Shown here: piece after piece, positions 50,854 through 64,000 of the stretch | Layout of the letters: each line of letters begins with the position of its first letter | Position numbering within the stretch: the first letter of the stretch is position 1 | Assembly: GCF_029946505.1 (NCBI RefSeq) | Contig: NZ_JARZHG010000009.1 | Location: 170,927-234,926 of the forward strand | DNA from: Polyangium sp. y55x31 | Lineage (GTDB): Bacteria; Myxococcota_A; Polyangia; Polyangiales; Polyangiaceae | Direction of reading: 5' to 3' | Length of the DNA stretch: 64,000 nt | The notes under the pieces: generated by a model | Databases searched by the model: none | Told to the model about the DNA's origin: nothing | The model's input: the letters and a program-made list of their open reading frames with translations, nothing else | Translations under genes and position numbers: made by a program

Positions 50854-52143
50854 CTATCCCCCCGCCCCCTGATCCTCCACGTACGGCGGCAGCGCGAATC
50901 GTTTCTCCTCGCAACCGTACGCCGTCGGCGTCAACTGAATCACCGTGTGGAGCGGCACGCTGATCGACGGACACTCGCCCGGCGGCCGGTCCATCAGGTA
51001 CGCGTAAATCGCCCGCAGCACCGCCTGGTGCGCGATCACGAGCGTCGGCGACCGCTGGCGTTCGAGCTGGATGATCACCGGATCGAGCCTCTGGATCACG
51101 TCCTCGTACGACTCGCCGCGCGGATATCGATAGCGGAATTTGTCGGCGCTCCGCGCGGCCCACACGTCCGGCATCTCGATCCGCACCTGGTCGTACGTCA
51201 TCCCGTCGCACACGCCCGCGTCGATCTCGTCGAGCGCGCGCCAGGTCCGCGGCGACCGCGTGATCTTCGTCGCCGTATGGATCGTCCGCCGCAGCGTGCT
51301 CGTCCACACGGCGACCTCTTGATCCCGCGGCGCGTTTTTCCGAACGAACTCCGCCAGGTGCTTCGCGTATTCCTCGCCCGCGGGGGACAGCTCGGGGTCG
51401 CCGCCGATGCGGCCGTGCCGGTTGTAGTCGCTCTGCCCGTGCCTCGTCAGCCAGATCGGGCGCGGCGAGACGTGCAGGTCGATGAGCAGCGGCGCGAGGC
51501 GCGCGGGCAGGTAGCCGTGGATCCGGTTCAGGATCACCTGGCGGCCGACGTCGATGATCTTGATGTAGCTCTGGTTCGGATCATCGAGCGTCTCGTACAT
51601 GCTCTCGTAGTGGGCGATGCGCCGCAGGAAATCCTGCGCCGCCGCGTCCGGATCCATGTCGACGTAGTCCGGCGACTTGAGCTTCGTGTCGCGGACGTTC
51701 GCCTCGATCACACCCGGGTCGTTGCAGAACGACTCGATGAAGACGACGGGCAGCCCCTCCTTGCGGCACCGCTCCTCGACGAGGCGCCTGCGCTCCTTCG
51801 TGCTGTTCGTCGCGTCGAAGATGCCGACCTCGCCGCCCTCGCGCAGCCACGCGAGCATGTCGTCGAGCGCCGTCATGGCGAGGTCGTGCAGCACCTGCCG
51901 GCCTTCCTTGTTCGTCGGCGCGAAGAAGTCCGCTGGCTGGCTCGCGCCGATCTGCCGGCGACGGTAGCTGCCCACGTTGAACACGCGGGTCGGATGACCA
52001 AGCCAGCTCAGGTAACGCGCCACGCGGCGCCCGATGTACGTCTTTCCCCGCGCGGGGAGGCCGACCATCGACAGAACGGTCGTCGCCTTGTCTCGCTCGC
52101 CCGGCACCCTTTTGCTCCGTACCCCCGACACGGCACGCTCCAT
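50854..52143 (-). CDS. bifunctional 6-phosphofructo-2-kinase / fructose-2,6-bisphosphatase-like protein (eukaryote-type PFKFB)
   Basis: The kinase P-loop MVGLPARGKTYIGRRVARYL is nearly identical to animal PFKFB (VMVGLPARGKTYIS). The C-terminal histidine-phosphatase carries RHGQSDYN (RHG motif) and a second catalytic His region. Confidence 0.8.
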   Translation of the reverse strand: MERAVSGVRSKRVPGERDKATTVLSMVGLPARGKTYIGRRVARYLSWLGHPTRVFNVGSYRRRQIGASQPADFFAPTNKEGRQVLHDLAMTALDDMLAWLREGGEVGIFDATNSTKERRRLVEERCRKEGLPVVFIESFCNDPGVIEANVRDTKLKSPDYVDMDPDAAAQDFLRRIAHYESMYETLDDPNQSYIKIIDVGRQVILNRIHGYLPARLAPLLIDLHVSPRPIWLTRHGQSDYNRHGRIGGDPELSPAGEEYAKHLAEFVRKNAPRDQEVAVWTSTLRRTIHTATKITRSPRTWRALDEIDAGVCDGMTYDQVRIEMPDVWAARSADKFRYRYPRGESYEDVIQRLDPVIIQLERQRSPTLVIAHQAVLRAIYAYLMDRPPGECPSISVPLHTVIQLTPTAYGCEEKRFALPPYVEDQGAGG

Positions 52144-52198
52144 ACCGCCCTACGAGCATGAGGGGAAGCATGAACCGCGGACGCGCGGATCGTGACGA

Positions 52199-54010
52199 TC
52201 ACGCCTCCCGCAACACCGGCCGCGCCTCGCTGGTCCCATGAAGCTCGGCGTAGCTGCGCCTGAGGCCGAAGCAGCGCGCCGAGAGCTCACACCGTCCGCA
52301 CGCTTCCGCCCGGACGAACTCGCCGCCGTCGTGGTTGCTCGGGATCTCCGCGAGGTCGAAGAACACGCGTGGATCGACGGGCGCGAGGCAGAGCGGGATC
52401 CCGCACATCGACTCGAAGCCGAGCACCGGGATCCCGGCCTCGCGCGCGATCGCGAGGCCCTCTCGCATCGCGGGCAAGAGATCCGTGTACCGCGGGATCA
52501 AGCTCTCCGTGCGAGGCACGAGATCGGTGAATGCAGAGGCGACCGAGACGTTGATCTCCGCGGCCGGCCAGCGCGCCGCGACGAGGCGCACGAAGTCCGG
52601 GAAATCAGCCTGATTCGGCGCGCAGAAGACGAAGTTCAGGCGAACGCGGATCTTCGTCTGCGCGAGCGCGTCGAGGCCCCGCGCCGTCTTCTCGAACGTG
52701 CCCGGCGCGCGTGTAATGGCGTCCGAGATTTCGGCGCGGGATCCGTGCAGCGACACGAACGCCACGTCGAGCCCGGCCTCTTCGAGCTCGCGCGCGCGGC
52801 CCGGATCCGCGAGCCGCACGGCGTTCGTCTGCAGCTCCACGGCGAGCGCGCCTTCACGCTTCGCGAGCGCGACGTACGCAGAGAGACGCCCGTTCAAGGT
52901 CGGCTCGCCGCCCGAGACCTGGAGGACGCCGCCGGCGTGCGCGATCTCGAGGATCGCGCGGCGCACGGCGTCGTCGTCGGGCGCCGGCAGGTGCGTCGAG
53001 ACGAAGCAAAAATCACAGGCCTGGTTGCACTGAAACTGGATGCGCACGATGTGCGAAGGCACGAGCCGGCCGTCGGGCGCGCGGTGGACGTCGCGGGTCA
53101 CGAGCTCGCGATCGATCTGCTCGCGCACCGAGGAGATCACCGTGAGCTTGCGGCGGATCCGGTCCTCCGTGAGAGGCCGGAACGAAGACGCGGACTCACG
53201 CGCGAGGAGCGCGCGCGGCACGCCGGGACAACGATCCGCGACGACACAAGCGCTGCATGCGGGCACGCGCTCGTGGCCGGGGCGGTTCGCGCCGCCGGGG
53301 TTCAGCGCGTAGAGGTGCGCGAGGCGCGCGGGACGCTCGAACGAGCACGGAGGGATGGACGCGCCGGGGTCGAGCGAGAGCTGGATCGCGGCCTCCCGCG
53401 CGGCTTGATCGAGCCGTTCGAGCGCGCGCGCGGCGCCTTCGAGGGGCGCGAGGGTCGTGGGATCGGGCGCGTCCACGGGGATCGACACGAGGATGCGCGA
53501 CGCCTGTAGCTCCTCCGCGCGCAAGCGACCCGGGATCGCCGCGACGACATCGAGGTTTTTCCGGACGATCGGCGTCGAGATCTCCAGCGGGATCCCCGCG
53601 GCGGCGAGGGCACGCGCGCCCGCGAGCGCGGCGGAAAAACCGCCCTCGTCACGCGTGATCCCGTCGGCCTCGGAGCCGAACGCCGGCATGTGCACGCGCG
53701 CGATCGAGAGGCCGGCTTCCACGAGCGCACGCGCGAGGCTCTCCGTGACGAGCGTCGCGTTCGTCTCCAGCACGACGCGCTCGGCGCCGCGCGCGCGGGC
53801 GTGACGGACGAGCACCACGAGATCCCGGCGCATCGTGGGCTCGCCGCCCGTCAGCACGACCTCGCGCGCGCCCTTGGCGAGCGCCTCGTCGATGCGGGCG
53901 AGCACGGCCGCGGGGCGGACGAAGTCCGGCCGCTCGACGGGCCTTCGCGCCGAGCAGAAGCCGCAACCCTGGTTGCAGGTCTCGTTGGTGAGCACCCGCG
54001 CGACGCGCAT
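52199..54010 (-). CDS. tandem radical-SAM protein: two consecutive rSAM modules, each followed by a SPASM/twitch-like Cys cluster
   Basis: Module 1 has CNQGCGFCS and GGEPT, then CSACVVADRCPG. Module 2 has CNQACDFCF and SGGEPT, then CGRCELSARCFG. The start is set at ATG 54010 (MRVARVLTNETCNQGC), because the track start at 54217 would overlap the divergent gene. Confidence 0.7.
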   Translation of the reverse strand: MRVARVLTNETCNQGCGFCSARRPVERPDFVRPAAVLARIDEALAKGAREVVLTGGEPTMRRDLVVLVRHARARGAERVVLETNATLVTESLARALVEAGLSIARVHMPAFGSEADGITRDEGGFSAALAGARALAAAGIPLEISTPIVRKNLDVVAAIPGRLRAEELQASRILVSIPVDAPDPTTLAPLEGAARALERLDQAAREAAIQLSLDPGASIPPCSFERPARLAHLYALNPGGANRPGHERVPACSACVVADRCPGVPRALLARESASSFRPLTEDRIRRKLTVISSVREQIDRELVTRDVHRAPDGRLVPSHIVRIQFQCNQACDFCFVSTHLPAPDDDAVRRAILEIAHAGGVLQVSGGEPTLNGRLSAYVALAKREGALAVELQTNAVRLADPGRARELEEAGLDVAFVSLHGSRAEISDAITRAPGTFEKTARGLDALAQTKIRVRLNFVFCAPNQADFPDFVRLVAARWPAAEINVSVASAFTDLVPRTESLIPRYTDLLPAMREGLAIAREAGIPVLGFESMCGIPLCLAPVDPRVFFDLAEIPSNHDGGEFVRAEACGRCELSARCFGLRRSYAELHGTSEARPVLREA

Positions 54011-54128
54011 CGGGACATCGTACTCTAGTCCCGAGGGGGACGCCTCGCGAGCTCGCAGAGCGCCGTTCGGCGCTCTCGCCCATGCCTCTTGCGCGCGGCG
54101 CCGCGCGCGGCGAACAATGCGCTCTCCC

Positions 54129-57100
54129 ATGAGCCCCCGCGCCGGCACGACCGACACGAGCCTCCTGCTCGCCGAGGGCTGCAACCTCGCCTGCCCCGTC
54201 TGCGATTGCCGCGCCAAGGCAGCGGACGAAGGGACGCGGCAGCGCGAGCTCCGGCGCGGCGGCGGCGTGCTCGAGCTGCGCGGAGAAGCTTCACGTCTGA
54301 AGGATCTCCGCGCGATCGTGCAAGACGCGCGCGACGCGGGCTGGGGCGCGGTGTACGCGCGGACGAACGGCGTGGCCTACGCCGCGGAGGGCCGCGCCGA
54401 GGAGCTTCGCGCGGCGGGCCTCTCGGGGGTCGTGTTTTTCCTCGCGAGCGACCGGCCGGCCGTGCACGACGCGATCTCCCGCGTGCGAGGCGCATTCTCC
54501 GCCGGGCTCGCGGGTCTCGGCGCGATCGCGGCGACGGGGCTCGACATCCTCTTCGAGATCCCGGTGCTCGATCCTTCGATCCAGGACCTCCGCGGCGTCA
54601 TCACACGGCTCTCGGGCGCGGCGCCGAACGCGCGTCGCGTCCGCCTGTACACGCCCGCCGCGCTCCGGCCCGTGGATGGGCGTGCGCCGCGCGAGCTCTC
54701 GCCGCCGCGCTGGGATCGGGCGCGGGACGGGCTCCTCGCGGCGATCGGGTTTGCCCGGGAAAAAGGGCTCGAAATCACGCTGACCGAGCGCGACGGGATC
54801 CCGCTCTGCGCCGTCGCCACGAAAACCGCGGACGGCGGGATCGACGTCCCCGAGCGCTTGCTGGCCGATCGCGGCGGCCGCCCGATTCCGCGCCACGCGA
54901 CCTCCTCGCTCGCGCCGGGCTGCGACGCATGCGGCGCCGCGCGCGCCTGCCCCGGCACGACGACGCTTTACCTCCACACGCACGGCGCTTCGGGTTTGTC
55001 CCCTTTGCCCCGCGCCCCGCAGCAGCGCCCGCGCGAGCGCTGGGACGAGACCCGAAAAAGCGCGGCGCGCGCGGCCTTCTTCACGGTCCTCCGCCCGACG
55101 GTCCATTGCAACCAGGATTGCTGGTTCTGCAGCGCGAACGAGACCTCCCACAACGTGGAGGAAGATCCGGGCCGGATGATGCGCCGGATCGCGCGCCTCG
55201 GCCGCACGGGGGTCGAGCAGATCTCGTTCAGCGGCGGCGAGCCCACGCTCTCGCGCCACCTCGTCGATTACGTCTCCGTGGCGAAGCGGACTGGCGTCCG
55301 CAGCATCGAGCTCGTCACGAACGCGGTGCTCCTCGACAAACCGGAAAAAGTCGACGCCCTCGTCGCGGCGGGCCTGACGAACGTCTTCGTCTCGCTGCAC
55401 GCGCACGACGAGGCGCTCGCGCGGCTGCAGACCCGCAAAATGGGCGACCACGCGCGCACGGTGCGGGCCTTGCACCTCTTCGCGCGCCACGACGAGCTCC
55501 GGCTCGACGTGAACCACGTCGTCTCGGCCCAGAATTACCGGCACCTCGTGCGGTTCGTCGAGTGGATGCACGCCGAGTTCGGCACGCGCATCGGTATTTC
55601 GTTCGCGTACGTCACGCCGCAATACAAAGCCCTCGAGCGGCTCGCCGACCACGTGCCGCGCTTCTCCGACGTCATGCCCTACCTGAAGCGCGCCATCGCT
55701 CGGGCCAGCGAACTCGGCGTCGAGGTCGTGGTGGGCTCGCGCCAAGGCGTGCCTCCGTGCCAGCTCGAAGAAATGGCGCCGTGGAGCGACGTGCTCGTCG
55801 CGCTGAGCGGCGCGCTCACGGAGGACGCCCCGCAAAAGCAGAAAGGACCGGCCTGCGCCGATTGCCGCTTCGACCTCGTCTGCACGGGCGTGTGGAAACC
55901 GTATGCGGCGCTCTTCGGCACGGATGAGCTCCGCGCCGTCCCCGGCGAGAAAATCACGCCGGAGAAATGCCTCTCCGAGCCGCGCATCGCGCGTTTCCGC
56001 CCCGGCATCGATCGCCTCGACGAACTCCGCATCGGCGACGGCCGCATCCCGCGGAGCGACGAGATCCCGCTCCCGGAAGCGCCGCGCGAGCGTGTCCACC
56101 TGCCCGTCGCGCCCGCGTCCACGCCGCGCGCCGTCCGCGTCGCGATCGTCGGCACGGGCCGGCGGGGCCTCGCCTTCGCGGCTGCGCTCGGGCAAGCGGG
56201 CGGGTTCGTCCTTTCGGGCATCGCCTCCCCGCACGCGCCGGACAAGGATCTGCCGGAGATCGCGGCCGACGTGCCCCGCGCGCGGACGCTCGCCGAGCTC
56301 TGCGAGCTTGCCGCGATCGACGCGGTGATCGTCGCCACGAGCACGCGGCATCACGCGGAGATCACGCGCGACGCGATCACGCGGGGACTCCCCTGCCTCG
56401 TGGAAAAACCGCTCGGCGCGACGCTCGCCGAGGCCGAGGCGCTCGCTTCCGAGGCGAAAGAGCGCATCACGGTGGCGCAGCAGCTCCGCACGGCCGGCGG
56501 GCTCGAAGAGATGCTCTCCGTGCTCGGGGATCGCAAAGGGGTCGATCGTCCCGTCGAAATCGAGGTCGTTCACCGGGCCACCGCGACCTCGCCCGCGAGC
56601 TTGCACGCGTGGTCCCGCACGGCGCTTTACGAGCTCTTGATTCACCTCGGCGACGTCGCGCAGGCCGTCGCAGGCGAGGATCTCCACATCCGCAAGGCCA
56701 CGGCCAAGGGCGGCGGGAGGCCCGAGCGCGTGACCTTGCGCGCGCGCGGCACCGGCCCGTCGCAGCCGGACGTGACCATCGAGCTCTTGCTCGCCGAGGC
56801 CGCGGATGCCCTCGAAGTGCGGGCGCGTCTCGGCGATGGACGGCGTTTGTCCTGGATACGCTCGGAGGGGCGTGACCTCGTGGAGGTGAGCGACGCAGGC
56901 GGCAAACGGACCCGCACGCCGCCGCGCGGGGGCGATCTCGCGCGCCTGCTCGTCGCGTTCCGCGAGAGCGTGGTTCGGGGCGATCGGCCGAAGGTCTCGG
57001 CGGAGGACGGCGTGCGGGCGATGCGGCTCTCGGCGGAGGCGATCACGGCGCTGGAGGCCGCGGGCGCGCCGTTCGACCGGGCCGCGGAACCGAAACGCGT

Positions 57101-57134
57101 GGCCTCGGTTCCGCTCCGGGATCGGGTGGGTTGA
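54129..57134 (+). CDS. tandem radical-SAM protein (two rSAM/SPASM-like modules) fused to a C-terminal Gfo/Idh/MocA NAD(P)-binding oxidoreductase domain
   Basis: Module 1 has CNLACPVCDC (CxxxCxxC), then CDACGAARACPG. Module 2 has CNQDCWFCS and SGGEPT, then CADCRFDLVCTG. The C-terminal Rossmann region reads VAIVGTGRRGLAFAAALG...LPCLVEKPL. The track ORF from 53835 is an over-extension. Confidence 0.7.
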   Translation: MSPRAGTTDTSLLLAEGCNLACPVCDCRAKAADEGTRQRELRRGGGVLELRGEASRLKDLRAIVQDARDAGWGAVYARTNGVAYAAEGRAEELRAAGLSGVVFFLASDRPAVHDAISRVRGAFSAGLAGLGAIAATGLDILFEIPVLDPSIQDLRGVITRLSGAAPNARRVRLYTPAALRPVDGRAPRELSPPRWDRARDGLLAAIGFAREKGLEITLTERDGIPLCAVATKTADGGIDVPERLLADRGGRPIPRHATSSLAPGCDACGAARACPGTTTLYLHTHGASGLSPLPRAPQQRPRERWDETRKSAARAAFFTVLRPTVHCNQDCWFCSANETSHNVEEDPGRMMRRIARLGRTGVEQISFSGGEPTLSRHLVDYVSVAKRTGVRSIELVTNAVLLDKPEKVDALVAAGLTNVFVSLHAHDEALARLQTRKMGDHARTVRALHLFARHDELRLDVNHVVSAQNYRHLVRFVEWMHAEFGTRIGISFAYVTPQYKALERLADHVPRFSDVMPYLKRAIARASELGVEVVVGSRQGVPPCQLEEMAPWSDVLVALSGALTEDAPQKQKGPACADCRFDLVCTGVWKPYAALFGTDELRAVPGEKITPEKCLSEPRIARFRPGIDRLDELRIGDGRIPRSDEIPLPEAPRERVHLPVAPASTPRAVRVAIVGTGRRGLAFAAALGQAGGFVLSGIASPHAPDKDLPEIAADVPRARTLAELCELAAIDAVIVATSTRHHAEITRDAITRGLPCLVEKPLGATLAEAEALASEAKERITVAQQLRTAGGLEEMLSVLGDRKGVDRPVEIEVVHRATATSPASLHAWSRTALYELLIHLGDVAQAVAGEDLHIRKATAKGGGRPERVTLRARGTGPSQPDVTIELLLAEAADALEVRARLGDGRRLSWIRSEGRDLVEVSDAGGKRTRTPPRGGDLARLLVAFRESVVRGDRPKVSAEDGVRAMRLSAEAITALEAAGAPFDRAAEPKRVASVPLRDRVG

Positions 57135-57140
57135 GCCCCT

Positions 57141-60100
57141 TCAGGGCGTGGTCATGCACTGATCCAGCAGTCGATAGCCGTTCACGTGCGTGGCCGACAC
57201 CAGCGTGCGCGACACCGTATTGCCGCTCGACCCCCAGCCCCGCCGGTAGAGCACGTCGTACGTCCCCGAAGGCACCTTCCCGCCATAGGTGTTCGGACTG
57301 AGCACGTAGACCCCGGGCGACTGATACTGATAGCTGTAGCCGCCGATGTAATGCGCGGCGTCCGTATCCTTCGCCACGAGGTAGATGTCCGCGCCGTCGT
57401 AATCGGTGTTCTTCGTCGGCAGCGGCCCGCCCGCGAGCGTGAGCGTCCCGCCGACGATCGACACCGGGATGTCCACGTTCAGCGTACTCGCGCCCGCCGG
57501 AATCGCGACGTTCGTCGCGAGCAACCGATAGCCGTTCACGTGCGTGGCCGACACCAGCGTACGCGTCACCGTGTTCCCGCTCGACCCCCAGTTCCGCCGG
57601 TAGAGCACGTCATACGTGCCCGCAGGCACCTTGCCGCCGTAGGCGTTCGCAACCAGCACGTACACGCCCGGCGACTGGTACTGGTAGCTGTAGCCTCCGA
57701 TGTAATGCGCGGCCTTCGTGTCCTTCGCCACGAGGTAGATGTCCGCGCCGTCGTAATCGGTGTTCGTCGCGGGTAGCGCCGCGCCCGCAAGCGTCAGCGT
57801 CCCGGTCACGCTCGCCACCGGAATATCAACGTCGAGCGTGTTCGCCCCCGCCGCGAGCGTGACGTTCGTCGCGAGCAACCGATAGCCGTTCACGTGCGTG
57901 GCCGTCAGCAGCGTACGCGTCACCGTATTCCCGCTCGACCCCCAATTCCGCCGGTAAAGCACGTCGTACGTGCCCGCGGGCACCTTGCCGCCGTAGGCAT
58001 TCGCAACCAGCACGTACACGCCCGGGGACTGGTACTGGTAGCTATACCCGCCGATGTAATGCGCAGCCTTCGTGTCCTTCGCCACGAGGTAGATGTCCGC
58101 ACCGTCGTAATCGGTGTTCGTCGCCGGCAGCGCCGCGCCCGCGAGCTTCAGGGTCCCGGTCACGCTCGCCACCGGAATATCCACGTCGAGCGTGTTCGCC
58201 CCTGCCGAGAGCGTGACGTTCGTCGCCAGGAGCCGGTAGCCGTTCACGTGCGTGGCCGTCAGCAGCGTACGCGTCACCGTATTCCCGCTCGACCCCCAGT
58301 TCCGCCGATAGAGCACGTCATACGTGCCCGCGGGCACCTTGCCGCCGTAGGCGTTCGCAACCAGCACGTACACGCCCGCCGATTGGTACTGGTAGCTGTA
58401 GCCGCCGATGTAATGCGCGGCCCCCGTGTCCTTCGCCACGAGGTAGATGTCCGCGCCGTCGTAATCGGTGTTCGTCGCCGGAAGCGCCGCGCCCGCGAGC
58501 GTCAGCGTCCCGGTCACACTCGCCACCGGAATGTCCACGTTCAGCGTGTTCGCCCCCGCCGCGAGCGTGACGTTCGTCGCCAGGAGCCGGTAGCCGTTCA
58601 CGTGCGTCGCCGTCGGCAGCGTACGCGTCACCGTATTCCCGCTCGACCCCCAGTTCCGCCGGTAGAGCACGTCATACGTGCCCGCGAGCACCTTGCCACC
58701 GTAGGTATTCGCCGAGAGTACGTACACGCCCGGCGACTGATACTGATAGCTGTAGCCGCCGATGTAATGCGCGGCCCCCGTATCCTTCGCCACGAGGTAG
58801 ATGTCCGCGCCGTCGTAATCGGTGTTCGTCGCCGGAAGCGGCCCGCCCGCGAGCGTCAGCGTCCCGCTCACGGTCGCCACCGGGATGTTCACGTCGAGCT
58901 TGCTTTCCCCCGCGCCGATGACGACGCCCGTCGCGAGCATCCGGTAACCATTCACGTGCGTGGCCGAAGGCAGCGTGCGCGACACCGTGTTCCCGCTCGA
59001 CCCCCAGCCCCGCCGATAAAGCACGTCGTACACGCCCGCGACCACCTTGCCGCCGTACGTGTTCGGGGAGAGCACGTACACGCCCGGCGATTGATACTGG
59101 TAGCTGTAGCCGCCGATGTAATGCGCGGCCTTCGTGTCCTTTGCGACGAGGTAGATGTCCGCGCCGTCGTAATCGGTGTTCGTCGCCGGCAGCGCCGCGC
59201 CCGCGAGCGTGATCGTCCCATTCACGACGCCCACCGGGATGTCGACGTCGCCCGTGCCGGGGTGCGTGGTCATGCAAGCCCCGCCGTTGCAGCCGGCCGA
59301 GGGCGCGCCCTTGCAGGCGCCCTGCACGTCGCACGCGTCTCCGGTCGTGCACGAAATGCCGTCGTTGCAAGACGTCCCCGGCGACGCGATCACCTTCGGG
59401 AACGACTGCGTGGCCTCATCGCACGCGCCATACGTCACGCACGGGCTGATGCTCACGGGCTTCTGCGGCACGTTCACGTGCACGCACCCCTCCGCGTCCG
59501 CGCCCGCCTGGCTCGGCGCGCAGACCTCCGCGCCCGTGCACCACGCCCCGTCGTCGCAAGCCGCGTTGCTCGTCGTGTGCGACGCGAGGCCGCCCGCGCA
59601 TTTGTCGATCGTGCACGCGACCCCGTCGTCCGGCACGTTCGTGTCGTCGTTCGTCGCGACGCACCCGGCCGCGAGATCACACGAATCGTCCGTGCACGCA
59701 TTGCCGTCGTCACACACCCGCGGGCTGCCGCCGGCGCAGACGCCCGCCTGGCAGGCCTGATCCACGATGCAAAGCGACGTCTGGCACGCCGTCCCGTTGG
59801 CGAGCGGCGTATGCTGGCAGTTCCCGCCTACGACCGCGTCGACCGTGCACGGGTTCTGATCGTCGCACATGGGCGTGTAGCACTGCGCCATCCCGCCCAC
59901 GACCTGGCAGGCCTGGTTCATCACGAGGCAGACGTTCGGCGTGCAGGGATCGTCCGTGCACCCGCCGTTGCCGTCGTCGTGATACCCCGGGTCGCACGTG
60001 CACACGTACGAAGCGCCTTCTCCCGCGCAGACCGTCTTGTTCGGCATGACGCAGGGATTCGGCAAACACGGATCCGTCGTGCAGCCGCCGTTTCCATCGT

Positions 60101-61013
60101 CGTGATAGCCCCCCGCGGCGTCGCACGTATCGCAGGAGGCCCCAGCGAAACCAGCGTCGCACGTGCAGACCACGTGGCCGCCTTCGACCGCGCACGCGCC
60201 ATGGCCCGAGCAGCTCGACGGCGTGCACACCTCGTCGATCACGCAGGCGCCGTTCTGATCGTGATACCCGGGATCGCAGCCGCAGACCGGCGATCCTCCT
60301 TCGACGGTGCATACACTCGCGTGCGGGGCCACGCACGGGTTCGGCAGGCACGGGTCCGTCGTGCAGCCGCCGTTTCCATCGCTGTGATAACCTCCCGCGT
60401 CGTCACACGCGTCGCAAGCGCTCCCGCTCCAGCCGACGTCGCACGTGCACACGGCCTCGCCGCCCTCGTCGTTGCAGCTCCCGTGACCGCTGCACGTCGT
60501 CGGCAGGCACGTCTTGTCCTCGATGCAAACGCCGCCCTCGTCGTGCGTGCCCGGCTTGCACACGCACTTCGCGGTGCCCGAGCTCCCATCACAAACGCGA
60601 TCGGGCGACATGCACGGATCCGGCACGCACGGGTCCGTCGTGCAGCCGCCGCTCCCATCGTCGTGATAACCGCCCGCGGCATCACACGAAGCGCACGTCG
60701 CGCCCGCCCAGCCCTCCGCGCACGTGCAGACGGCCGACCCACTCGAATCGTCACACGTCCCGTGTTCGCCGCAGGGGTTGTTCTGGCAGCTCGCCTCGAG
60801 CACGCACACGCCGCCGTCGGGGTAAGATCCCGGCGGACACCCCGCGTCCGGCTCAGAGGCATCCGGCTCCGAGGCATCGGGCGTCTCGGTGACGTCCCGC
60901 CCGGCGTCGACGGGGCCCGGCGGTATGCCGCCGTCGTCGCCGCAGCCGAGGGCCACGAGCGCGAGGAACACGAGGAGCGTGGGGAGCAAACCCGTCGGGG
61001 GGCGCTTTCGCAT
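57141..61013 (-). CDS. large secreted lipoprotein: N-terminal EGF-like/Cys-rich repeat region plus six near-identical 118-aa tandem repeats
   Basis: The start is set at ATG 61013 (MRKRPPTGLLPTLLVFLALVALGC, lipobox). Repeated CTTDPC(L/V)PNPC...GYHD Cys modules are followed by six copies of NTDYDGADIYLVAKDTxAAHYIGGYSYQYQSPGVYVL...YDVLYRRNWGSSGNTVTRTL... Confidence 0.75.
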   Translation of the reverse strand: MRKRPPTGLLPTLLVFLALVALGCGDDGGIPPGPVDAGRDVTETPDASEPDASEPDAGCPPGSYPDGGVCVLEASCQNNPCGEHGTCDDSSGSAVCTCAEGWAGATCASCDAAGGYHDDGSGGCTTDPCVPDPCMSPDRVCDGSSGTAKCVCKPGTHDEGGVCIEDKTCLPTTCSGHGSCNDEGGEAVCTCDVGWSGSACDACDDAGGYHSDGNGGCTTDPCLPNPCVAPHASVCTVEGGSPVCGCDPGYHDQNGACVIDEVCTPSSCSGHGACAVEGGHVVCTCDAGFAGASCDTCDAAGGYHDDGNGGCTTDPCLPNPCVMPNKTVCAGEGASYVCTCDPGYHDDGNGGCTDDPCTPNVCLVMNQACQVVGGMAQCYTPMCDDQNPCTVDAVVGGNCQHTPLANGTACQTSLCIVDQACQAGVCAGGSPRVCDDGNACTDDSCDLAAGCVATNDDTNVPDDGVACTIDKCAGGLASHTTSNAACDDGAWCTGAEVCAPSQAGADAEGCVHVNVPQKPVSISPCVTYGACDEATQSFPKVIASPGTSCNDGISCTTGDACDVQGACKGAPSAGCNGGACMTTHPGTGDVDIPVGVVNGTITLAGAALPATNTDYDGADIYLVAKDTKAAHYIGGYSYQYQSPGVYVLSPNTYGGKVVAGVYDVLYRRGWGSSGNTVSRTLPSATHVNGYRMLATGVVIGAGESKLDVNIPVATVSGTLTLAGGPLPATNTDYDGADIYLVAKDTGAAHYIGGYSYQYQSPGVYVLSANTYGGKVLAGTYDVLYRRNWGSSGNTVTRTLPTATHVNGYRLLATNVTLAAGANTLNVDIPVASVTGTLTLAGAALPATNTDYDGADIYLVAKDTGAAHYIGGYSYQYQSAGVYVLVANAYGGKVPAGTYDVLYRRNWGSSGNTVTRTLLTATHVNGYRLLATNVTLSAGANTLDVDIPVASVTGTLKLAGAALPATNTDYDGADIYLVAKDTKAAHYIGGYSYQYQSPGVYVLVANAYGGKVPAGTYDVLYRRNWGSSGNTVTRTLLTATHVNGYRLLATNVTLAAGANTLDVDIPVASVTGTLTLAGAALPATNTDYDGADIYLVAKDTKAAHYIGGYSYQYQSPGVYVLVANAYGGKVPAGTYDVLYRRNWGSSGNTVTRTLVSATHVNGYRLLATNVAIPAGASTLNVDIPVSIVGGTLTLAGGPLPTKNTDYDGADIYLVAKDTDAAHYIGGYSYQYQSPGVYVLSPNTYGGKVPSGTYDVLYRRGWGSSGNTVSRTLVSATHVNGYRLLDQCMTTP
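57186..59240. repeat. six tandem ~354-bp near-identical coding repeats inside gene 57141..61013
   Basis: The motif GTGTCCTTCGCCACGAGGTAGATGTCCGCGCCGTCGTAATCGGTGTT recurs at about 57372, 57717, 58074, 58425, 58784 and 59139 with roughly 354-bp spacing. Confidence 0.8.
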
Positions 61014-61695
61014 GGCGCGCACTTTATCGGGGTTCGTTCGGGCTCGGAAGAGCGAGCGAGCGTTCGACGCGCAGCAGCCGACATGGGTGGACCGGGAGCG
61101 GAGAGCGCGACGCCGCCAGGGCCTCCGCGCCTTCGAGGCCTCCCGCGTGGTCACCGCTTCGGTTTGCCAAAGCGACTCGCACGGTTGTTAGCCGATTTTT
61201 GCGGTCGCTCATCATGCCACCGTCGATTGTCGGCGGTGCGGATGAGGGGCGCTGCAGATGGATGCCCGCTTTGCACATCTCGCCGCGCTGCGCAAGCGGA
61301 TGCTAATGGGCGTGGGCGCCTCGGGCTTCAGCTCCTCCTTATACGTGACGATGAGGCACTGGGGGGGTCGAGAAGGCCCCACCTCGTTGCGTTGCCGAAT
61401 TCGCTTTGTGCACAATCAACTTCGCGGCACTCAAAGTGTCACGGACGAAAATTCCCTCTCGTCGTTCTCGAATTTTGATGTATATTCATTACGTCCATAC
61501 ATCGTTAACGAGAATACGACATGGCGACCACCCGTGAGGCCGTGGGCGCATTGGCGCGCCCATACGACGGGGCCTCTCCCGCACGTGCGCGAGTCAACTC
61601 GGGTTCGCTCAAAAAGGAGCAAATAACACGAGAGCGGCGCAGAAGACCGTGATGATGAGCTTTTCGCTGCGTTCTGGCGGCGATCTGGAGGACCG

Positions 61696-64000
61696 ATGCT
61701 TGTAGATTTCGAAAAGTTTACGGGATCACTACCCTATGCAAGCGGGCTCTTTGGGATTTATCAGCCTTTGCTCGGCTGGCGCGCAAAGGCCATGACGCGA
61801 CGCTTCGGGAACAGCGTCAACTTAAGTGAAGCGGTCATCGCATACACGGCATCAAAGATCATTCCGCAATATACCATCTCGGGCGTCGGTGGGCGGGAGC
61901 TCGAGCTCCAGAGCCTCTCGGTGGGTACCGTGACGACGCCCTACCGGGTAAGGCTGCCGGCCCAGATCGACAGCCACATCGCTCGTCGTGTGCTCGAGAT
62001 GATCCGGTCGGAGGAGACGATCCTCACCCGGGAGACCATCACCTGGGCGGAATTCGTCGCCCCTGCGGTCCTTGAAACCGAGCTCGCCACGATTCGACGG
62101 AAGCTCGCGCCGCCGCCCGGGGTCAGCGCGAGCAGCCGCGAGGCATTCAGGCGCGCAGCCGAGCGCGAGTCGGTAATCGCCGGCGTTCTCAGCAAGCTCT
62201 ATCAACAGAGCTCCTGGGACATCCTGAGCGGGCTCTTCTTCCCGAAGACGACGGAGATCGACTACTCCGACCTTTCGGGGATTTTCACGATTCTGGCGGA
62301 GCCGGAGGAGGAGTTCGCCATCGATGCGGAGATCAACCGTGCCGTGCTGTCTCCGGTCGGGATCATCCACCTGTTCCGCCAGTACTTCTTCGAGTTCGAC
62401 TCGTTCCTCGGACCCTCCATCCAGCACGTTTGGCTCTCGCCGGGCGCCGTTGTGGAACTCGTCGAGAGCCACGCGCGGAGGGTACAGACCGAGCGCTTTA
62501 CGGAGATCTCTTCCGAGTCGAGCCAGAAGACCGAGGAATCGGTCACGGACACGGACGAGATCTCCGATGCCATCAAGGACGAGAACACCAACAACACGAA
62601 GCTCGGCGTCAGCGCGAACATCGACGCCGGCCTGGACATGGAGATCTTCTCCGCGCACGCCTCGGCGAACGTAGGCTACGGGTTCGACAACACCCAGAAG
62701 AAGGCTCGGGAGCAGCTCCACAAGCAAACCCGAGCGCAGAGCTCGAAGGTCACGAACGAGATCAAGAGGAACCACAAGACCTCGCTGCGCACCGTGACCG
62801 AGACGACGGACGTGTCGAGCAAGCGTTACGTGCTCACGAACAACACGTCCGCGCTCGTGAACTACGAGTTGCGTCGGAAAATGCGGCAGGTCGGCGTGCA
62901 GCTCCAGGACATGGGCACGCAGCTTTGCTGGCAGGCGTACGTCGATGATCCGGGGCTCACGCTCGGCGTCGCCGAGCTCGTCCATATCGCGGAGCCGGCC
63001 GACTTGGCGAACCTCCCCCTGCCGCAGGCGCCGGTGTACCTCGAGCCCAAGGTCGTCGAAACGACGGTCAAGTTCGACTACGAGAGAGCGGACGACAGCG
63101 AAGGTAGCGAGATGGACGTCACCTTCTATGAGGGCAGCGATGAAGAGGGGGGGACCGACAACAACGACAAGATCGTATGGCAGAAAGAATACGACGTGTC
63201 ACCCCCGCAACATGGATACTGGCTCGAGAGCGTCCAGGTCACGCCCCTCCACAGCGCGGTGTGCGTGGCGGAGCCGGAGGTGATCCATTCGGGGGGTAAG
63301 TTCAAGATCAGCCTCAAGCAGGTCAATTTCAACAATCAGCCCTCGATCAACCTGGCGGTGAAGCTCAACTGGAACCCCCCGGATCAAAAAGCGCTCGAGG
63401 AGCAGTTCAATGCGGAGCTGGCCTCGCACGAGCAAGAGAAATCGCGACTGGCCAAGGAGGCCTTCATCAAGGCGGCGCGGGAGCGCGTGAGGCTCGCGAG
63501 CAGCATCGAAGCACGTAACAGCGTCGAGCTCCGCGAGGAGGAGCGGGTCGTCGTGTACCGCAAGCTCATCGAAAAGCTGCTCGACGTCGGTGTGGACCTG
63601 AAGAAGAACCCCACCACTCGGCACCTGATGTCCGAGCTCGTGAGCGCCCTGTTCGACGTCGACAAGATGCTCTACTTCGTGGCGCCGGAGTGGTGGAGTC
63701 CCCGTGCGCACCCCGTGAAACAATCGCTCGGCGCAGTCCAGGGCCCTGATGGCACGAAGTACGAAAAGCTCACGCCCGACAACGCGGTGAGCTGGGGCGG
63801 CTCCGCCGAGAACTTGCGGGATGCCAACTATTACATCACCGAGGATTCCCGGCCCGCGAAGCTCGGGAGCTCGCTCGGGTGGCTGCTGCAGCTCGACGGC
63901 GACACGATGCGGAATGCCTTCCTGAACGCACCGTGGGTGAAGGCGGTCATCCCCATCCGACCCGGCAAGGAGCTCGATGCGCTCAAGTGGCTGAAGAACG
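61696..64000 (+). CDS. large hypothetical protein, 3' end outside the window (at least 768 aa); no recognisable family; lower GC than the rest of the window
   Basis: Not in the supplied ORF track because no stop falls inside the window. I translated frame +1 block by block from ATG 61696 (GGAGGA 4 nt upstream; in-frame TAA at 61624) to 64000 and found no stop. Residue composition is protein-like and diverse. All overlapping track ORFs are in other frames or antisense. Confidence 0.7.
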   Translation, partial: MLVDFEKFTGSLPYASGLFGIYQPLLGWRAKAMTRRFGNSVNLSEAVIAYTASKIIPQYTISGVGGRELELQSLSVGTVTTPYRVRLPAQIDSHIARRVLEMIRSEETILTRETITWAEFVAPAVLETELATIRRKLAPPPGVSASSREAFRRAAERESVIAGVLSKLYQQSSWDILSGLFFPKTTEIDYSDLSGIFTILAEPEEEFAIDAEINRAVLSPVGIIHLFRQYFFEFDSFLGPSIQHVWLSPGAVVELVESHARRVQTERFTEISSESSQKTEESVTDTDEISDAIKDENTNNTKLGVSANIDAGLDMEIFSAHASANVGYGFDNTQKKAREQLHKQTRAQSSKVTNEIKRNHKTSLRTVTETTDVSSKRYVLTNNTSALVNYELRRKMRQVGVQLQDMGTQLCWQAYVDDPGLTLGVAELVHIAEPADLANLPLPQAPVYLEPKVVETTVKFDYERADDSEGSEMDVTFYEGSDEEGGTDNNDKIVWQKEYDVSPPQHGYWLESVQVTPLHSAVCVAEPEVIHSGGKFKISLKQVNFNNQPSINLAVKLNWNPPDQKALEEQFNAELASHEQEKSRLAKEAFIKAARERVRLASSIEARNSVELREEERVVVYRKLIEKLLDVGVDLKKNPTTRHLMSELVSALFDVDKMLYFVAPEWWSPRAHPVKQSLGAVQGPDGTKYEKLTPDNAVSWGGSAENLRDANYYITEDSRPAKLGSSLGWLLQLDGDTMRNAFLNAPWVKAVIPIRPGKELDALKWLKN

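Follow-up and report, generated by a model that had tools for sequence, protein, structure and literature searches.

We describe a large open reading frame at the end of a 64,000-nt stretch of DNA from Polyangium sp. y55x31 (the window; coordinates are those of the whole stretch). The frame opens with an ATG at position 61696, on the plus strand, and runs off the window. Its predicted product, hereafter the big protein, is placed by profile comparison in a large unannotated superfamily, and in the 77 related loci examined the gene is part of a two-gene cassette whose second gene, encoding an enzyme, is polymorphic and rapidly exchanged. The partner enzymes that can be recognised act on peptidoglycan, phospholipid or protein. 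We tentatively read the frame, giving this somewhat less than an even chance, as the membrane-breaching, glycan-binding large subunit of a two-gene polymorphic toxin cassette.

The gene, its family and its exchangeable partners

The original prediction, made from the window alone, had reported that frame +1 stays open from ATG 61696 to the window end. Indeed, the frame holds 768 codons without a stop up to base 64000, and each of the other five frames carries 5-38 stops over the same stretch. The visible codons are the first 85% of a 908-codon gene, the remaining part of which lies past the window edge. The translation is 100% identical to RefSeq WP_281314703.1 (P0001), a 'hypothetical' protein of 876 aa from Polyangium sp. 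y55x31, whose RefSeq start is Met33 of the frame and thus lies 32 codons downstream of ATG 61696. We reassign the start to ATG 61696 because the skipped 32 residues (61696-61791), which contain the motif LPYASxxFGxYQPLLGW, are near-invariant in the alignment of homologues from many phyla, and because a GGAGGA box precedes this codon. Judged by these features, the RefSeq model is 32 codons short and the full product is 908 aa long. The model of the sister strain Polyangium sp. 15x6 (P0121, 878 aa) may share the too-late start.

61687-61692, plus strand: Shine-Dalgarno-like GGAGGA, read from the sequence, 3 nt 5' of the ATG and kept in Polyangium sp. 15x6
61696-64000, plus strand: first 768 codons of the 908-codon gene (WP_281314703.1 with corrected start), running off the window

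Long accidental frames do arise in high-GC genomes, and many overlapping ones are listed in the window. The chance that the present frame is spurious is nevertheless practically nil: thousands of homologues share 60 invariant residues over 900 aa, the GC content at third codon positions (GC3), 0.85, is that of a real host gene, a Shine-Dalgarno box precedes the start and RefSeq annotates the gene. The earlier analysis had named a lack of conserved homologues or neighbourhood as grounds for dismissal; both exist, the neighbourhood in the form of a recurrent partner gene. The spurious-frame explanation is refuted and the gene is real.

The protein had also been said to belong to no known family, and our searches agree. 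The window protein has no Pfam match at E<=1, and no match to the big protein was found in NCBIfam, in PHROG or, at E<=1, among the families of PADLOC-DB v2; a search of the PDB with the family profile returned nothing. The proposed link to defence thus finds no known system behind it. Also confirmed was the reported lack of a Walker A motif (none in the visible 768 aa), of a signal-peptide-like N-terminus and of a transmembrane helix (maximum 19-residue Kyte-Doolittle mean 1.14 in the visible protein). We found no paper on this family or on the sister family described below, accession lookup included; a paper on bacterial teneurins (PMC13018210) proved unrelated to either.

More than 1,661 homologues of ~860-970 aa, with 37-70% identity, were found in a set of 5.8 billion proteins, where the family forms 1,414 clusters at 50% identity (E<=1e-3), 514 of them with E<=1e-30. 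Among 185,579 species genomes (one genome per species) there are 284 relatives (~0.15%) from at least 11 phyla. Hosts are Myxococcota, Actinomycetota (Streptomyces, Nocardia, Mycobacterium, Amycolatopsis), Bacteroidota, Acidobacteriota, Beta- and Gammaproteobacteria (Nitrosomonas, Nitrosospira, Legionella, Lysobacterales), Planctomycetota, Chloroflexota, Gemmatimonadota, Verrucomicrobiota, Nitrospirota and Bacillota, and members are also plasmid-borne in Bacillus thuringiensis and B. cereus. Cross-phylum identity is 37-45%, with 60 invariant columns in the family alignment. The big proteins of Nitrosomonas oligotropha (L040) and Mycobacterium sp. ST-F2 (L068) are 73% identical, and such identity between a betaproteobacterium and an actinobacterium therefore points to a fairly recent transfer of the cassette between phyla. 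A phage or prophage origin was considered and rejected on the near-absence of the family from phage and viral-contig collections: no member was found in 50,697 phage genomes and one match in 2.9 million viral contigs. In Paraburkholderia sabiae (L001 33-2580) the cassette sits amid DDE, IS21 and Mu-type transposases, and a nearby operon with an SMC_N/AAA_15/AAA_23 ATPase could be a defence system.

A sister family of ~880-aa proteins (at least 533 matches) is collinear with the window family (hhalign probability 95.9%, E 5.7e-9, 479 profile columns). Its hosts include Nonomuraea, Streptomyces (among them S. venezuelae), Nocardia, Paenibacillus alvei, Paraburkholderia and Methylococcus.

The partner genes were studied in 86 loci, 77 of which are non-redundant and have a co-directional downstream open reading frame of >=200 aa. 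This frame can start within 20 nt of the stop codon in 59 of the 77 loci and within 75 nt in 68, gap sizes that are approximate because start codons were picked mechanically. Clustering of the partners gives at least 11 unrelated groups, with singletons besides:

15 loci: phospholipase D (PLD) type (PLDc_2, Pfam)
about 12 loci: unannotated family A4 with invariant Ser (in G-F/Y-S), Asp and His, resembling Ser-Asp-His hydrolases
5 loci: subtilase (Peptidase_S8, Pfam)
4 loci: N-acetylmuramoyl-L-alanine amidase (Amidase_2, Pfam)
3 loci: group with an HExxH-like motif, recognised by eye, no Pfam match
1 locus each: sub-threshold OmpA-like or PhoD-like Pfam match
other loci: several families without annotation

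Exchange of the enzyme gene is evident from closely related carriers. The big proteins of three loci with a PLD (L025), a partner of unknown family (L026) and an S8 protease (L030) are 85-87% identical, and those of L044 and L045 are 94% identical and have unrelated partners. We also looked in the big protein for an adaptor region specific to the partner, an idea that was rejected: no part of the protein was found to co-vary with the partner, and the last 50 aa are near-constant (92-100% identical between carriers with different partners). A conserved third gene or immunity-like frame (>=45 aa, within 1.5 kb either side) was found only among near-identical genomes. None of the closely following partners has a signal-peptide-like N-terminus; the two signal-like N-termini that we detected are both on unrelated, more distant neighbours. 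Fourteen partners of several unrelated enzyme families have a Pro-rich start, with >=8 Pro in the first 40 aa (L008, L021, L029, L030, L032, L035, L041, L043, L058-L061, L067 and L071); such a stretch could serve them in common as linker, docking peptide or translocation leader.

Partner genes had been expected past position 64000. Relatives do carry adjacent downstream genes for degradative enzymes; the gene of y55x31 itself would be like that of Polyangium sp. 15x6 (L007), whose big protein is 95% identical to that of the window and whose partner is a Ser-Asp-His hydrolase-like protein. In the sister family, one partner has a Tlde1 match below the Pfam cut-off (25.7 vs 30.1 bits) and that of S. 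venezuelae is a Rv2525c_GlyHyd-like glycoside hydrolase (precomputed Pfam match). A faint DrmC-like PLD match (16.5 bits vs a cut-off of 133) was seen in one partner.

Several of these traits would suit a housekeeping envelope-remodelling factor that controls a cognate autolysin or lipase in growth, division or development: the partners act on peptidoglycan or lipids, GC3 is host-like, the locus is syntenic in two Polyangium strains and some UniProt entries of the family are automatically named 'peptidoglycan-binding protein'. We consider such a role improbable. Housekeeping is hard to reconcile with presence in only ~0.15% of species genomes (284/185,579), with partner swaps between near-identical big proteins and with members on plasmids and next to transposases. 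The subtilases (5 loci) and the HExxH-like group are also ill-fitting partners for a dedicated autolysin regulator.

Architecture and the candidate membrane-inserting hairpin

Two AlphaFold2 models were used: a full-length model of a complete homologue (P0002, 69% identical; 111 sequences, mean predicted local distance difference test score (pLDDT) 77, predicted template modelling score 0.64) and a domain-only model of aa 205-450 of the window protein (mean pLDDT 66). Together with the alignments they suggest the following layout:

61696-62334, plus strand: N-terminal domain (aa 1-213), mostly helical in the P0002 model and variable
61729-61779, plus strand: near-invariant motif LPYASGLFGIYQPLLGW (aa 12-28), predicted beta-strand 15-26 with pLDDT ~85
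62335-62985, plus strand: central long-beta-strand module (aa 214-430), the most conserved part, common to the sister family (hhalign probability 96-97%)
62596-62688, plus strand: variable Ser/Thr/Gly/Ala-rich amphipathic hairpin-like insert TKLGVSANIDAGLDMEIFSAHASANVGYGFD (aa 301-331), candidate membrane-inserting tip
63037-63381, plus strand: beta-sandwich (aa ~448-562) resembling trimeric lectin and tail-fibre knobs
63388-63648, plus strand: long helical hairpin or coiled coil plus helix (aa ~565-651) with invariant REEER, which aligns with LRREESDE of the sister family
63649-64000, plus strand: start of the conserved C-terminal domain (aa 652-908), continuing past the window, with SLGWLLQLDGDxxRNAFLNAPWVKAVIPIRPGKE

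The central module is predicted to be built from unusually extended strands, the longest of 36 residues. Between the long strands (218-261 and 372-417) of the P0002 model lie an insert modelled with low confidence (260-323 and 359-373) and a helix of 30 residues (330-359). The domain-only model shows four very long strands (219-247, 252-287, 346-381 and 388-413) with a disordered tip; one and the same central segment is modelled as helix in the first case and as strand in the second. The insert is flanked by a conserved acidic stretch, QDELSDAVKEEN (DEISDAIKDEN), and a basic one, KKAREQLHKQTRAQSSKVTNEIKRNHK (family ARExxHKxMRQQSEKLSxEIK). Across the family it varies in sequence and carries indels, and its richness in Ser, Thr, Gly and Ala and its alternation of polar and apolar residues are retained. 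The family-mean period-2 hydrophobic moment exceeds the mean + 2 standard deviations (SD) in two arms (P0002 298-310 and 322-328) with a dip between them. Such a two-peak pattern is that of a beta-hairpin with one apolar face; it is suggestive of, and compatible with, this structure. The Ser/Thr-rich alternating hairpin put forward in the original prediction therefore holds for the insert, where the period-2 signal is above 2 SD. It does not hold for the second segment quoted there, SLRTVTETTDVSSKRYVLTNNTSALVNYELRR (SLRTV...YELRR): rather than a membrane hairpin, this segment forms highly conserved, confidently predicted core strands.

A kinship with beta-pore-forming proteins had been proposed as well. 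The weak structural neighbours of the central module, all below significance, are Tpp80Aa1, Cry78Aa and Cry35Ab1 (from Foldseek) as well as BinB, Tpp49 and the lysenin pore, and Pfam Toxin_10 was matched by only 3 of 52 sister-family members, at E 0.43. Although individually insignificant, these signals are of aerolysin type throughout, and their convergence on this toxin class is suggestive; part of it may reflect the geometry of an elongated sheet alone. The predicted structure thus weakly suggests pore formation by the big protein. The link to MACPF and gasdermin proteins finds no support: we found neither a sequence nor a fold match to them, and the MACPF/CDC fold and signature motif were not recognised in the big protein.

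The flanking domains may serve in binding and anchoring. In some relatives (P0306, P0379, P0382 and P0409) the N-terminal domain is replaced or extended by Ig-like or LamG-like inserts, recognised by eye, or by a predicted transmembrane hairpin, and it seems to act as an exchangeable module for targeting or anchoring. By eye only, P0382 (1,087 aa) has a LamG/concanavalin-like insert in this domain, and P0409 (1,137 aa) has a stretch before the PYAS motif with the look of a two-helix transmembrane anchor. The main divergence hot-spots among close relatives are the beta-sandwich and a loop at ~670-730; for the beta-sandwich this is as expected of a receptor-binding element. In the P0002 model it is followed by two long helices (563-627) and then the C-terminal alpha/beta domain. 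Sister-family members carry N-terminal fusions to LysM/Phage_tail_X, a GH18 chitinase or DUF3597 (significant Pfam matches), and one of them, P0229, has a weak C-terminal legume-lectin-like match (E 0.0078, below the cut-off). Searching longer sister-family members with Pfam for toxin domains fused to them was uninformative, and the one weak Ntox22 match (E 0.0038) could not be located.

These modules raise the question of whether the big protein need form a pore at all. It might instead be a carrier, scaffold or particle, trimeric and like a fibre or lectin, which binds wall glycans and presents the enzyme, or an effector adaptor for another export machine. The LysM/Phage_tail_X fusions speak for such a role, as does the position of the main divergence hot-spot in the beta-sandwich, where a receptor-binding domain would have it, and the Pro-rich starts of fourteen partners could be a generic docking or linker peptide. 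We nevertheless think a carrier of this kind unlikely. It leaves the conserved long-strand module with its variable amphipathic insert unexplained, and no partner-specific region was seen in the big protein. Nor was another conserved neighbour found that could serve as export machine. The hosts span Mycobacterium, Bacillus, Legionella, Bacteroidota and Myxococcota, and to our knowledge type VI secretion (T6SS) is absent from Gram-positives and type VII secretion (T7SS) from Gram-negatives; no single specialised secretion system therefore fits.

Proposed mechanism, alternatives and known systems

If the big protein is the large subunit of a toxin cassette, it would be made in the cytoplasm, as a 908-aa protein without signal peptide, together with the exchangeable envelope-attacking enzyme from the next gene. 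The beta-sandwich would bind a cell-surface glycan, with LysM (Pfam) and lectin-like modules (weak Pfam matches or by eye) added in relatives. The big protein would then oligomerise, and its long beta-hairpin would extend and insert the amphipathic tip into the membrane in the manner of aerolysin and Toxin_10 proteins. With the barrier breached, the co-expressed enzyme could get to peptidoglycan, phospholipid or envelope protein. The likelier target would be another cell, following a release that uses no classical secretion signal, and the producer's own membrane a less likely one; action on other cells is favoured because of the carbohydrate-binding and chitinase fusions.

A number of observations weigh against this reading. 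The period-2 pattern is not diagnostic, because the apolar face of the hairpin is weakly hydrophobic (mostly Ala, Gly and Val) and because ordinary strands elsewhere in the big protein, those of the beta-sandwich included, reach the same score. The pLDDT of the putative tip is <50 in both models. A cross-phylum identity of ~40% is unusually high for a toxin, and the kin-immunity gene expected of an antibacterial weapon was not found. For neither protein is the export route known. As to the cassette, gap sizes depend on the mechanical choice of start codons, the partner gene of y55x31 past base 64000 is extrapolated from strain 15x6 and a homology search with the 15x6 partner returned only itself.

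The lack of signal peptides on both proteins and of an immunity gene would be accounted for by an inside-out cassette for altruistic suicide or lysis. Here, the cytoplasmic big protein would sense a phage, developmental or stress cue and perforate the producer's membrane in the way of a gasdermin or of a giant, soluble holin; the partner would reach peptidoglycan or membrane and the cell would lyse, be it in abortive infection, in developmental lysis or for the release of goods. Programmed lysis occurs in myxobacteria and Streptomyces. The partners overlap with phage lysis enzymes (Amidase_2, a GH25-like Rv2525c-type fold, LysM wall binding, lipase-like hydrolases), the distribution is patchy with near-identity between phyla (73% for Nitrosomonas/Mycobacterium), and one locus has transposases and an SMC/AAA_15-type ATPase around it. 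We give this explanation a small chance only. PADLOC has no match to the family, the 2.9 million viral contigs gave a single one and the 50,697 phage genomes contain no member; its neighbourhoods hold mostly ordinary metabolic genes rather than defence islands. Lectin-like modules and a GH18 fusion are ill-suited to a cytoplasmic sensor, and the big protein has no NTPase or other recognisable sensor domain.

Comparison with known systems helps to place the toxin-cassette reading. With aerolysin and Toxin_10 proteins (BinA/BinB, Tpp49Aa1, Tpp80Aa1, Cry35Ab1) and with lysenin the big protein shares, as predicted here, a long-strand sheet with a variable amphipathic Ser/Thr/Gly-rich hairpin between polar or charged flanks, a trait that is present and yet not specific to this class. 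Further common traits are an accompanying domain of carbohydrate-binding type and the lack of a signal peptide, as in crystal toxins; some Toxin_10 proteins are two-protein toxins, and members of this class are the top-ranked, though insignificant, structural neighbours of the big protein. Unlike them, the big protein is 2-3 times larger, differs in its N-terminal domain, its coiled coil and its C-terminal domain, which are unrelated, is far more conserved across phyla and shows no significant sequence or fold match to the class. Its partner is an enzyme and not a second toxin-fold protein, and the genomes that carry its family are Gram-negative, Gram-positive and actinobacterial.

Binary AB toxins (anthrax protective antigen, C2-II, iota Ib, Vip1/Vpb) likewise pair a translocator-like protein of ~700-900 aa with separate enzymatic components. 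The predicted disordered amphipathic loop that would form a long barrel stem, the receptor-binding beta-sandwich and the unstructured N-terminal leader on many partners all have counterparts there. However, the present proteins lack signal peptides, the enzymes are envelope hydrolases and not ADP-ribosyltransferases or other cytosol-acting enzymes, and a shared partner docking domain was not detected. The hallmarks of a B component of the protective antigen type (Binary_toxB domains, a domain 2 like that of protective antigen and a signal peptide) are missing from the big protein.

The combination of a conserved module with rapidly exchanged toxin modules is that of polymorphic toxins (Rhs, CdiA, LXG, T6SS effectors), down to the exchange between near-identical carriers, and the PLD, GxSxG-like hydrolase, amidase and sub-threshold Tlde1-like partners recall T6SS effectors (Tle lipases, Tle5 PLD, Tae/Tlde1). 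In contrast to polymorphic toxins, the toxin here is encoded by a separate downstream gene and not as a C-terminal fusion, no cognate immunity gene was found and neither was a secretion apparatus or known trafficking domain. Taken by analogy, the cassette most resembles a binary or aerolysin-type pore-forming toxin joined to the logic of polymorphic toxins.

Holin-endolysin and gasdermin-protease pairs offer a further parallel: a membrane-breaching component, putative in our case, beside a cytoplasmic enzyme in need of envelope access, no signal peptides, and Amidase_2, GH25-like and LysM domains among partners and fusions. A small transmembrane holin with a muralytic enzyme, borne by phages, is not what we see. 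The big protein has no transmembrane helix and is 5-10 times the size of a holin, its family is near-absent from phages and only some partners are muralytic. As for gasdermins, there is no fold match, and proteases make up only 5 of the 77 partners. Finally, the big protein loosely recalls TcA of the Tc toxins in its domain order (beta-sandwich, then long helical hairpin, then C-terminal domain), and the sister-family entry A0ABW6PV45 carries the automatic UniProt name 'TcA C-terminal TcB-binding domain-containing protein', which we could not reproduce. Our Pfam scans gave no TcA_TcB_BD match, no pentameric alpha-helical channel of the TcA kind was recognised and no TcB/TcC genes are adjacent.

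In its boldest form the toxin-cassette reading would describe a self-contained delivery or membrane-breaching machine: a soluble ~900-aa protein of new fold with a metamorphic beta-hairpin, requiring no dedicated secretion system. Any of a dozen envelope-degrading enzymes could take their turn behind it, in lineages as different as Gram-negatives, Gram-positives, mycolate bacteria and myxobacteria, and it would stand as a new class of polymorphic toxin or cell-death system apart from T6SS, T7SS, contact-dependent inhibition, Tc toxins, binary AB toxins, gasdermins and holins. We rate this extended version as rather doubtful.

Were the cassette reading right, at least 11 phyla would share an uncharacterised two-gene weapon or suicide module, whose conserved component is without a recognisable counterpart in solved structures and curated families and whose enzyme is exchanged like a cassette. 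This would amount to a new delivery principle for microbial antagonism or cell-death biology, and the partners, whose families mostly lack annotation, would be a catalogue of new envelope-targeting enzymes. As many cargos are tolerated without co-variation, the carrier could become engineerable. Even without pore formation, a protein of 900 aa that is absent from Pfam and ~40% identical across phyla merits definition. Tractable hosts are Streptomyces venezuelae and Paenibacillus alvei (sister family), Mycolicibacterium vanbaalenii and Bacillus thuringiensis with plasmid pBT62B.

Base composition, leader and neighbouring gene

Horizontal acquisition of the gene had been proposed from its lower GC content. 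The drop itself is real: local GC is 0.57-0.64 around the frame, which has 0.62 overall, vs ~0.70 upstream. GC3 of the frame (0.85) is, however, close to that of three neighbouring genes at 50854-61154 (0.88-0.91), and the deficit is held by second codon positions (GC2 0.405). Recent transfer cannot be derived from GC, given that GC3 resembles the host's and that GC2 accounts for the shortfall. The lower GC stems from a composition rich in Lys, Asn, Glu, Ser and Thr and is no sign of recent acquisition, and synteny of the locus is kept between two Polyangium strains.

61155-61695, plus strand: intergenic leader of 541 nt, GC 0.57-0.62, between the divergent EGF-repeat gene and the big-protein gene
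57141-61154, minus strand: divergent EGF-repeat gene, 1,337-aa product with a weak sub-threshold galactose-binding-like match

The leader, described beforehand as AT-rich and palindromic, is 85-89% identical to that of Polyangium sp. 15x6. Its palindromes are short (10-12 nt, at 61547-61566 and 61576-61593) and GC-rich, and an AT-rich inverted repeat of 7 nt (61477-61503) is not kept in 15x6. No sigma-70-like promoter was found in the leader. A 122-aa open reading frame inside it (61258-61626, plus strand) has no Pfam match and is probably a chance frame in GC-rich DNA. The EGF-repeat gene has no link to the cassette in other taxa and holds the same position in Polyangium sp. 15x6, where the whole locus, leader and EGF-repeat gene included, is syntenic and 85-95% identical.

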